A stretch of DNA of 64,000 nt, taken from the sequence record OQ973471.1; one strand, written 5' to 3'. This DNA is from Escherichia phage AV101. Shown piece by piece: positions 63,129 through 63,491 of this stretch. The notes under the pieces were generated by a model. The model was not told where the DNA came from. It saw only the letters and a list, made by a program, of their open reading frames with translations, and made no database searches. The translations under genes and the position numbers were made by a program. Within the stretch, counting starts at the first letter, position 1; each line of letters opens with the position of its first letter.

Positions 63129-63150
63129 TCCCGCTTCGGCGGGATTTTTA
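63129..63150 (+). terminator. Rho-independent terminator
   Basis: TCCCGC-TTCG-GCGGGA followed by TTTTT. Confidence 0.7.
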
Positions 63151-63198
63151 TTGGCTTAACTGTAAAATCGGTTAACACGTACTCTCTTTACCTGAAAT

Positions 63199-63207
63199 TG
63201 CTATAAT
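63199..63207 (+). promoter_or_regulatory. Extended -10 promoter-like element (TGcTATAAT)
   Basis: TGCTATAAT 50 nt after the terminator, heading an ORF-free stretch of about 280 nt before the gp5-like gene. Confidence 0.35.
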
Positions 63208-63491
63208 GGGCTTGTTCCCGAGTCATTTGTTGGTGTTTGTCTGTTTTGAATCAGATTGCCAGTAAAATACCATTTTTCAAGGAGTGTTCTGGGGTGTACA
63301 GTTATTGCCTCGCCCTTATGCCTCCATGGCATTGGAATGGTGCTGCCCGCATAGGGCGGTTTGATGAGCGAAGCGAATAGGATCGAATAAAACAAATAAA
63401 ATGAACGGAAGCAGAGCTTCCTATAGTATATAAGGCAAAATCAGCTGCGCATAAATACCTTCAAATCCTTGTTTGACAACCGGAACTCAAT

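Follow-up and report, generated by a model that had tools for sequence, protein, structure and literature searches.

The genome of Escherichia phage AV101 (sequence record OQ973471.1) contains a gap of about 340 bp at positions 63129-63491 of the 64,000-nucleotide (nt) stretch analyzed here, which we refer to as the window. On its 5' side are a gp26-like hub gene (62173-62979) and a 49-amino acid (aa) gp51-like open reading frame (ORF), and on its 3' side a gp5-like hub/lysozyme gene, raising the question of what, if anything, the intervening DNA encodes. The original prediction, made from the letters of the window, was that it could specify a small RNA or a long regulatory leader. Here, we report that the gap very probably holds a genuine conserved element that acts as structured RNA, and that related copies lie upstream of two other genes in the phage family. 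Over the 801 bases around the gap, identity is 99% to Enterobacter phage fGh-Ecl02 and Escherichia phages PC3 and YX22; it falls to 96% for Shigella phage Ag3 and to 92% for the Dickeya Limestoneviruses. Based on these values, the window belongs to an Agtrevirus-like phage of the Ackermannviridae. Read from 5' to 3', the features of the gap are as follows.

63127-63151, plus strand: putative intrinsic terminator of the gp26-orf49 unit, from a terminator scan; 8-bp stem, UUCG loop and U-run
63199-63207, plus strand: extended -10 promoter-like site P1, TGCTATAAT (TGcTATAAT), found as a motif; -35 not recognizable
63264-63302, plus strand: promoter-like block P2, a bipartite motif shared across loci and specific to this family of elements
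63318-63340, plus strand: predicted H-type pseudoknot, from the alignment of gp5- and gp6-upstream copies
63342-63360, plus strand: hairpin P3, GCUGCCC / GGGCGGU with a variable 4-5-nt loop, paired in 100% of alignment cells
63361-63385, plus strand: tandem-G·A hairpin, core GAGCGAAGCGA at 63366-63376, from covariation and a covariance model
63386-63406, plus strand: A-rich linker, ~86% A+T, poorly conserved (20-66% identity to other clades)
63407-63430, plus strand: hairpin GGAAGC-AGA-GCUUCC (63407-63421) followed by UAUAGUAUA, read from the sequence; the terminator scan flags the minus strand only
63450-63457, plus strand: T4-type late-promoter-like CATAAATA for gp5, invariant; a putative late promoter in the LIMEstone1 annotation

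The center of the element is a fold of three modules, the first of which is the pseudoknot. Stem 1 pairs 63318-63322 (AUGCC) with 63328-63332 (GGCAU), and stem 2 pairs the loop bases 63324-63327 (CCAU) with 63337-63340 (AUGG). The hairpin AUGCC-UCCAU-GGCAU (63318-63332) is invariant at the gp5 locus and its paralog upstream of gp6 is GCAGCC-UCCAU-GGCUGC, with two pairs of stem 1 changed on both sides between the paralogs (A-U to C-G and U-A to A-U). Stem 2 is paired in 15 of 15 sequences, and at both loci Taipeivirus has C-G in place of A-U for pair 63326-63338. Because the only two substitutions in an otherwise invariant 23-mer, A63326C and U63338G of Taipeivirus, retain this stem 2 pair, the hairpin is best described as a putative H-type pseudoknot, whose stems are maintained by covariation in a small number of independent events. 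Hairpin P3 likewise has two pairs changed on both sides, together with invariant U·G and G·U wobbles. Across the pseudoknot and P3, 96.5% of cells are paired, compared to 26-54% in slid controls, and five pairs covary. P3 (CUGCCC-GCAUA-GGGCGG, with the loop GCACA in the Taipeivirus gp6 copy) resembles the stem-loop of type I-F CRISPR repeats (CUGCC-GUAUA/GCACA-GGCAG); the likeness is confined to the stem-loop, the flanks do not match, and it may be due to chance. An RNA anti-CRISPR that mimics a solitary CRISPR repeat would be expected to resemble a host repeat over almost its entire length.

The third module, the tandem-G·A hairpin, is laid out as a flanking stem, GA, GC, either a 3-4-nt loop or a long inserted stem, GC, GA and the return of the flanking stem. 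Over 15 instances, pairing reaches 89.5% of cells, compared to 30-45% with the partners shifted by 1-3 columns, and both sides have changed in six of the seven pairs. Trained on those instances, a covariance model (R1) matches the window at 63357-63385, and finds copies that were not used for training in CBA120, 3M, Kevin and K5lambda5 and upstream of gp6 in LIMEstone1. Since the G·A tandem and the wobbles fit the plus strand only (the wobbles would be C·A on the other), the functional strand is that of gp5. Junctions between the three modules measure only 1-5 nt, indicating a compact fold of ~70 nt. Global minimum free energy folding of the 223-nt region was not better than shuffles (z = -1.2 on the plus strand and -1.9 on the minus strand), and RNAalifold on the first alignment returned local helices only. 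The original prediction had named RNA structure conservation in relatives as a check on the idea, and plus-strand helices with compensatory changes are what the relatives contain.

Three paralogous copies of the element are present in each genome examined, located upstream of gp5 (hub), gp6 (wedge) and gp45 (clamp), and each is preceded by a promoter-like block and followed by a late promoter and an essential gene. The copy upstream of gp6, found by a model search of LIMEstone1, is composed of a first G·A hairpin, the pseudoknot, P3 and a second G·A hairpin, and is conserved in Aglimvirinae, Kuttervirus and Taipeivirus; in Miltonvirus it consists of the two G·A hairpins only. In Aglimvirinae, Taipeivirus, Kuttervirus and Miltonvirus alike, the gap upstream of gp45, to which we were led by blastn, has a -10-like hexamer followed by two tandem G·A hairpins. 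The A+T-rich stretch that follows the second of these contains lineage-specific tandem duplications, of a ~21-nt unit in the window-like phage and of TATTTGAG, which occurs twice, in IME250. In a pattern scan of IMG/VR, 19 of the 20 matching complete Ackermannviridae genomes have exactly two pseudoknot modules, upstream of gp5 and gp6 (the twentieth was stored with one module, and its second copy was not sought); outside this family the scan gave three chance hits. The flanks of the hairpins are alike between loci within a clade and different between clades, and in phage 3M the gp5- and gp45-upstream copies align over 93 nt at 77% identity (E=7e-15). Such concerted flanks suggest that a single partner recognizes the copies, or that gene conversion occurs between them. 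No second copy lies within the 64-kb window, and nothing from 63129-63263 recurs in it; the original prediction, which correctly described a single ORF-free region, did not recognize the three-copy paralogy.

By blastn, the element is found in ~270 phage records, essentially all of them Ackermannviridae of Enterobacterales. For the lone 'Enterococcus' and 'Pseudomonas' records, a wrong label or contamination is probable. Records OR844944.1 and OR844942.1 ('Enterococcus phage Efm 3-10') carry a Kuttervirus-like gp5-upstream element and a gp45 at 82% identity, likely reflecting contamination or mislabelling. We considered a host or plasmid origin and set it aside, as neither 5,426 E. coli genomes nor the PLSDB plasmids contain a match. 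Outside of the four clades, a lone G·A hairpin occurs in Vibrio phage K362, directly after TATAAT and ~20 nt before the gp5 ribosome-binding site, and the hairpin is seen in none of the other loci among ~125 distant gp26/gp6 loci. In Aeromonas phiA8-29 the gap is only 100 nt long. A single metagenome scan with an invariant 20-mer gave nine matches, all of them chance occurrences within unrelated genes, and revealed no new lineages.

Conservation among relatives was the other expectation of the original prediction, and the gap core is indeed retained across Limestonevirus, Kuttervirus and Taipeivirus above the level of neutral four-fold sites. Identity over 63285-63360 is 94% to LIMEstone1 (Limestonevirus), 84% to Vi01 (Kuttervirus) and 76% to May (Taipeivirus), compared to 53%, 31% and 34%, respectively, at four-fold sites of gp26 and 51%, 48% and 41% at those of gp5. 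The gap therefore evolves far more slowly than neutral sites and is under strong purifying selection, and it is noncoding. Mechanical ORFs of 47 aa on the plus strand and 64 aa on the minus strand exist, neither of which is conserved. A gene for a small protein, either a plus-strand frame of 20-28 aa beginning MPPWHWNG or the 64-aa minus-strand frame, could be argued from these open frames, from an ATG at 63318 that is invariant in three clades, and from AAGGAG located 9 nt before a GTG at 63294 in Aglimvirinae. However, insertions and deletions of 1 nt in Taipeivirus break every frame, with IME250 and Menlow differing again; the Shine-Dalgarno-like motif is absent from Kuttervirus and Taipeivirus; and the Miltonviruses (3M, MAM1 and Kevin) lack the 23-mer that would encode the only plausible peptide. 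In addition, variable columns are spread 10/11/9 over the codon positions, with no three-base periodicity, the candidate protein has no PHROG match, and the only two changes in the 23-mer form a compensatory RNA pair. A small protein, on either strand, is therefore rejected as extremely improbable, in keeping with the earlier statement that no credible ORF is present. The gap might instead be an ordinary spacer, in which a terminator and promoters drift and apparent conservation reflects recent exchange of phage DNA; the block 62974-63473 is 88-99% identical to LIMEstone1 and EspM4VN, as against 72-84% for the flanking genes, so that between Agtrevirus and Limestonevirus recent recombination could account for it. 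This too is very improbable, because the gap is also conserved in Kuttervirus and Taipeivirus, whose synonymous sites are close to saturation, and because this conservation resides in helices with compensatory changes that recur at two other loci. Coding and neutral-spacer explanations are thus essentially excluded. In phage May (HOS53_gp093) and at the gp6 start of K5lambda5, annotated coding sequences cross the conserved noncoding elements upstream of gp5 and gp6, and these annotations are probably mis-calls.

Next to the fold lies P2, which combines an A-tract (63264-63269), a -35-like TTTTCA (63274-63279), a 17-nt spacer and a -10-like TACAGT (63297-63302). Of the 17 instances from the gp5-, gp6- and gp45-upstream loci of the four clades, 16 share its general form: an A-tract followed by TTTTC(A/T) or CTTTC(C/T), 17-18 nt of spacer and TAnnnT, with a spacer sequence that differs between loci. 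In ~158 kb of phage sequence, the composite motif is confined to those three loci, compared to 0.04-0.09 occurrences expected. P2 looks like a sigma70-type promoter with an UP-like A-tract, and resembles T4 early promoters, which have an A-rich -42 region and a GTTTAC -35. Transcripts from P2 would start near 63309, with the pseudoknot following at once; upstream of gp6 and gp45, the start would coincide with the first G·A hairpin. P1 lies ~100 nt upstream of the P2 block and is confined to the gp5 locus. As a sequence it conforms to the sigma70 extended -10 class (TGnTATAAT, for which a -35 is dispensable), and it has no -35 match at 17-bp spacing. Three copies of the motif occur in 64 kb, compared to 1.2 expected, and the bare motif is therefore not significant by itself; an identical TTGCTATAAT is located on the minus strand at 54438-54447, likewise between genes. 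Aglimvirinae, Kuttervirus and some Taipeivirus (May and IME250) retain P1 in the form TTG(C/T)TATAA(T/C), and the surrounding block is 88% identical to Vi01 and May. Menlow-type Taipeiviruses have TTCTTATAAT at this position, in which the TG is missing, and the Miltonvirus version is weaker.

Upstream of both promoter-like sites, 63127-63151 has the features of an intrinsic (Rho-independent) terminator and putatively acts as one. It reads AATCCCGC-TTCG-GCGGGATT followed by TTTTATT, has five G-C pairs in the stem, and begins 1 nt before the orf49 stop ends. The stem is kept with other sequences in Kuttervirus (AACCCCAC..GTGGGGTT), in Taipeivirus (AACCCCGC..GCGGGGTT) and also in Miltonvirus through compensatory changes, and the same site is labelled as a terminator in the LIMEstone1, May and Menlow records. 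At the other end of the gap, CATAAATA is 100% conserved in every clade, including Miltonvirus. It matches the T4-type late element TATAAATA at 7/8 positions, and two copies occur in the window compared to 1.2 expected. We regarded as T4-type late promoters those TATAAATA-like elements that lie ~30-40 nt before a late structural gene in a phage with gp55 and gp33; relatives encode gp55 and a late-promoter coactivator, and CATAAATA is a putative promoter of this kind. Promoters in the LIMEstone1 paper were predicted solely by likeness to T4. Most of the anatomy in the original prediction is thus recovered, namely a strong terminator (given as 63129-63150), TGcTATAAT at 63199-63207 and a near-late-promoter at 63450-63457; its inventory was incomplete in that the second promoter-like block, P2, was missed.

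The late promoter of gp6 is also invariant and also 3' of the fold. Since invariant late promoters sit downstream of the fold, the element is not part of the late gp5 or gp6 mRNA leader. Between fold and late promoter, the hairpin at 63407-63421 is 95-100% identical among Aglimvirinae and Kuttervirus and shows a compensatory A-U to U-A change in Taipeivirus (GGAUGC/GCAUCC), and the tail behind it is TATAAT in Kuttervirus and Taipeivirus. Phage 3M has a different A/U-rich hairpin instead, and none is evident in phage Kevin. This hairpin, 63407-63430 with its tail, may serve as a weak terminator or mark where an RNA has its 3' end. The apex of the G·A hairpin (63369-63373) is GAAGC in Aglimvirinae and GCUUC in Kuttervirus, which are the two strands of the downstream hairpin GGAAGC/GCUUCC. 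Alternative pairing between apex and hairpin is possible in both clades, an observation made post hoc.

Taken as a whole, our best explanation, which we favor tentatively, is that the gap carries a structured noncoding element of the plus strand, restricted to Ackermannviridae of Enterobacterales, that would be expressed as an early RNA and serve as a platform for a factor. Host RNA polymerase would transcribe it early from the sigma70-like sites, giving a noncoding RNA of ~110-215 nt that starts near 63214 and/or 63309, ends near 63425-63430, and forms a transcription unit separate from the late gp5 mRNA. A trans-acting factor, for which a protein is the likeliest candidate, would then use the invariant fold as its binding platform. 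This is suggested by invariant structural residues, freely varying apical loops and concerted flanks between loci; hairpin flanks that are clade-specific, yet identical between the loci of one genome, would fit co-evolution with one shared partner. As a mechanism, a stand-alone regulatory RNA that binds a factor is possible, and we hold to it with considerable reserve. Of the alternatives in the original prediction, the small RNA or regulatory leader idea gains comparative support from selection, noncoding character and strand-specific covarying helices, whereas a leader on the late gp5 mRNA does not stand.

Several points weigh against the proposal of an early factor-binding RNA. The predicted RNA pairs no better with the start regions of gp5 or gp26 than shuffled controls do, and limited literature searches returned no expression data for the phage family, nor any Ackermannviridae transcriptome, regulatory RNA or replication origin. 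The covariation comes from only four to five independent lineages plus paralogs that possibly exchange sequence, and independent events are accordingly few. The pseudoknot and P3 are not universally required, given that Miltonvirus lacks both. Because the U-tail of the downstream hairpin is poor (UAUAGUAU), the 3' end is uncertain and there could be read-through into gp5. Finally, the P2 block could be part of an RNA or a DNA site instead of a promoter.

Two other explanations accept the element and assign it a different role. The copies might be replication origins that operate through R-loops, whereby a host-type promoter produces a structured pre-primer RNA that forms a persistent hybrid at A+T-rich DNA downstream and primes leading-strand synthesis. 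T4 oriE lies among baseplate genes, and in common with T4 oriF, oriG and oriE, the elements here are several dispersed noncoding sites with a candidate host-sigma70-type promoter and an A+T-rich part near transcription divergence: gp45/ORF121 and gp6/ORF164 are divergent, and the gp5-upstream copy is 1.1 kb from the gp26 divergence. Further, the P2 block is unique to the three loci and is followed by a variable A+T-rich stretch that tolerates duplications. In T4, minimal oriF and oriG are composed of a promoter and an A+T-rich unwinding element within ~100 bp, oriE depends on an early promoter, and the more active origins are at transcriptional divergence (PMC3016281). However, the T4 unwinding element does not depend on a particular sequence, and neither a common sequence motif nor a conserved RNA fold is involved in T4 origins (PMC3016281), whereas here there are paralogous copies whose strongest constraint is a compact pseudoknot-hairpin fold. 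P2 (63264-63302) and the A-rich stretch (63386-63406), only ~21 nt long in the window, are separated by ~80 nt of G+C-rich folded RNA, and GC skew, examined as an origin signal, is flat and uninformative. We consider origins of this type unlikely.

Equally, the element might act in cis as a leader or attenuator, where a bound protein or ligand decides between termination and read-through into gp5, gp6 and gp45, either as a riboswitch aptamer with a terminator or through antitermination of the nut/put type. All copies are on the coding strand directly upstream of the gene with a hairpin between fold and gene, gp45 is required before late transcription, the order TATAAT, G·A hairpin and gp5 ribosome-binding site in K362 would suit such a role, and so would the post hoc complementarity of the G·A apex to a strand of the downstream hairpin. 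Against this, gp5 and gp6 are late structural genes whose main mRNAs, made from their own invariant late promoters downstream, do not contain the element; as terminators the downstream hairpins are poor, and they are not kept from one locus to another; Rfam contains no riboswitch or leader that matches; and the boxA-like CGCUCUUA is exact only in some Aglimvirinae. Cis-acting control of this sort we also judge unlikely. More speculative still, and in our view quite improbable, is that the fold represents a new sensing or self-processing RNA (a riboswitch-like aptamer or ribozyme), with three copies gating early clamp and baseplate transcription, or that the copies are R-loop origins or clamp-loading sites that feed the adjacent late promoters. 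The setting for an aptamer or ribozyme is one of junctions of 1-5 nt, conserved residues that are mostly structural, and apical loops free to vary.

Parallels can be drawn with several known systems. The T4 gene 32 mRNA operator, which binds gp32, is a compact H-type pseudoknot followed by an A/U-rich unstructured leader. Like it, the element has a small H-type pseudoknot with a one-nucleotide first loop and an A-rich stretch downstream, and plausibly binds protein; unlike it, the element has no sequence similarity, is not located before a gene 32 homologue, occurs in three copies, carries the additional P3 and G·A hairpin, and has a late promoter between itself and the start codon. CsrB/CsrC and RsmX/Y/Z are also sets of paralogous noncoding RNAs with a repeated hairpin (here the G·A hairpin, one or two per copy); they sequester proteins, and here the hairpin sequence co-varies between copies as though one partner recognized them all. 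However, the repeated unit here is a tandem-G·A helix and not a GGA loop, there are five to six sites per genome, and the Rfam Rsm/Csr models do not match. By analogy with the ColE1 RNA II pre-primer, a promoter-driven structured noncoding RNA, the fold could govern hybrid formation with downstream DNA, but there is no homology, the element is much shorter, and an antisense partner like RNA I was not seen. As in lambda nut and HK022 put, hairpins lie just past a promoter and before terminator-like structures, and a boxA-like octamer is present in most Aglimvirinae; unlike nut and put, the octamer is kept neither in the window (CGCCCUUA) nor in other clades, the hairpins resemble neither boxB nor put, and we know of no N-like protein in the Ackermannviridae. 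PeSL cassettes of T4-type phages are mobile short repeats in hyperplastic regions, each with a stem-loop and an early promoter. The gap shares with them a terminator stem-loop followed by a candidate host-type promoter (63127-63207), but 63129-63263 is unrepeated in the window, and what does recur, at three syntenic loci of fixed position, is a longer folded RNA.

Searches for known families and signals gave no match. At the gathering threshold, Rfam 15 detects only four transfer RNAs (tRNAs) in the window and no family at the gap; at E<=10 the gap gives sub-threshold chance matches only, mostly on the terminator, and the gp6- and gp45-upstream paralogs have no match at E<=1. The gap contains no tRNA or transfer-messenger RNA genes. 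The element thus matches no Rfam 15 family, and it is unannotated in the records examined. A hammerhead ribozyme, defined by a CUGAUGA ... GAAA core, three helices and a cleavage site after stem III, was considered for UGAUGAGCGAAGCGAA, given that UUGAUGA-GC-GAA-GC-GAAU of Aglimvirinae resembles its core. We rejected it because Kuttervirus, Taipeivirus, Miltonvirus and the paralogs have (U)UACGAGC...GCGAGU, without the essential G5 and A14, and because the flanks form a plain hairpin; the Rfam hammerhead has no match in the gap. A lambda boxA/nut site was rejected as well. CGCUCUUA, the lambda boxA sequence, is exact directly before the pseudoknot only in some Aglimvirinae (Ag3, LIMEstone and EspM4VN-type); the window has CGCCCTTA / CGCCCUUA, Kuttervirus CGCCTTTA and Taipeivirus CGCCTTA, and a boxB-like GNRA-type pentaloop is absent. 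Sigma54 (GG-N10-GC), RfaH ops (GGCGGTAGnnTG) and a T4 MotA box at -30 were dismissed by eye, since either the spacing or key residues are unsuitable.

Members of the Ackermannviridae, among them Vi01, CBA120, LIMEstone and the Klebsiella Taipeiviruses, are in wide use as candidates for biocontrol and therapy, and they have been annotated almost wholly by analogy to T4. The records examined leave these gaps empty or fill them with dubious small ORFs, and the probably wrong gene calls are flagged here. Coordinates, helices and compensatory pairs are now defined precisely for an RNA family that is absent from Rfam 15 and on which selection is stronger than on the neighboring proteins. Depending on which explanation is true, it would represent the replication origins of the family, a new phage RNA-protein pair, or a new class of cis-regulatory RNA.

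The genes on either side of the gap are the following.

62979-63128, plus strand: 49-aa ORF, gp51-like baseplate hub assembly protein, last of the upstream operon (phrog_9633, E=3e-39; phrog_634 'baseplate hub assembly catalyst', E=4e-4)
63492-64000, plus strand: start of the gp5-like baseplate hub/tail lysozyme gene, which runs off the window (phrog_430, E=4e-58, and annotations of relatives); its ATG is at 63492, and not at 63493 as originally given

At the DNA level, the 49-aa ORF is 99% identical to LIMEstone1 and all 12 of its four-fold sites are the same, compared to 53% in the neighboring gp26. This unusual conservation could reflect recent exchange of the segment or an additional constraint at the level of nucleic acid. 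In Aglimvirinae, the ATG of this ORF overlaps the gp26 stop (TAATG, 62976-62981 in the window), whereas Kuttervirus and Taipeivirus have TAATTTTTG at the same site and no ATG, yet the gp51-like protein is conserved. This suggests a non-canonical start or coupled re-initiation. The gp51-like ORF is unannotated in the records of Vi01, bering, PhiSH19, May, Menlow, IME250 and EspM4VN that were examined. Upstream of the gp26-orf49 operon, and directed at it, a perfect sigma70 consensus (TTGACA, 16 nt, TATAAT; 12/12) is located at 61960-61987 on the plus strand, ~185 nt before the gp26 start and inside a minus-strand ORF (61599-62129), and a late-promoter-like TATAATTA immediately precedes gp26. 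The four tRNA genes of the window (Met, Asn, Tyr and Ser) are clustered at 230-1203.

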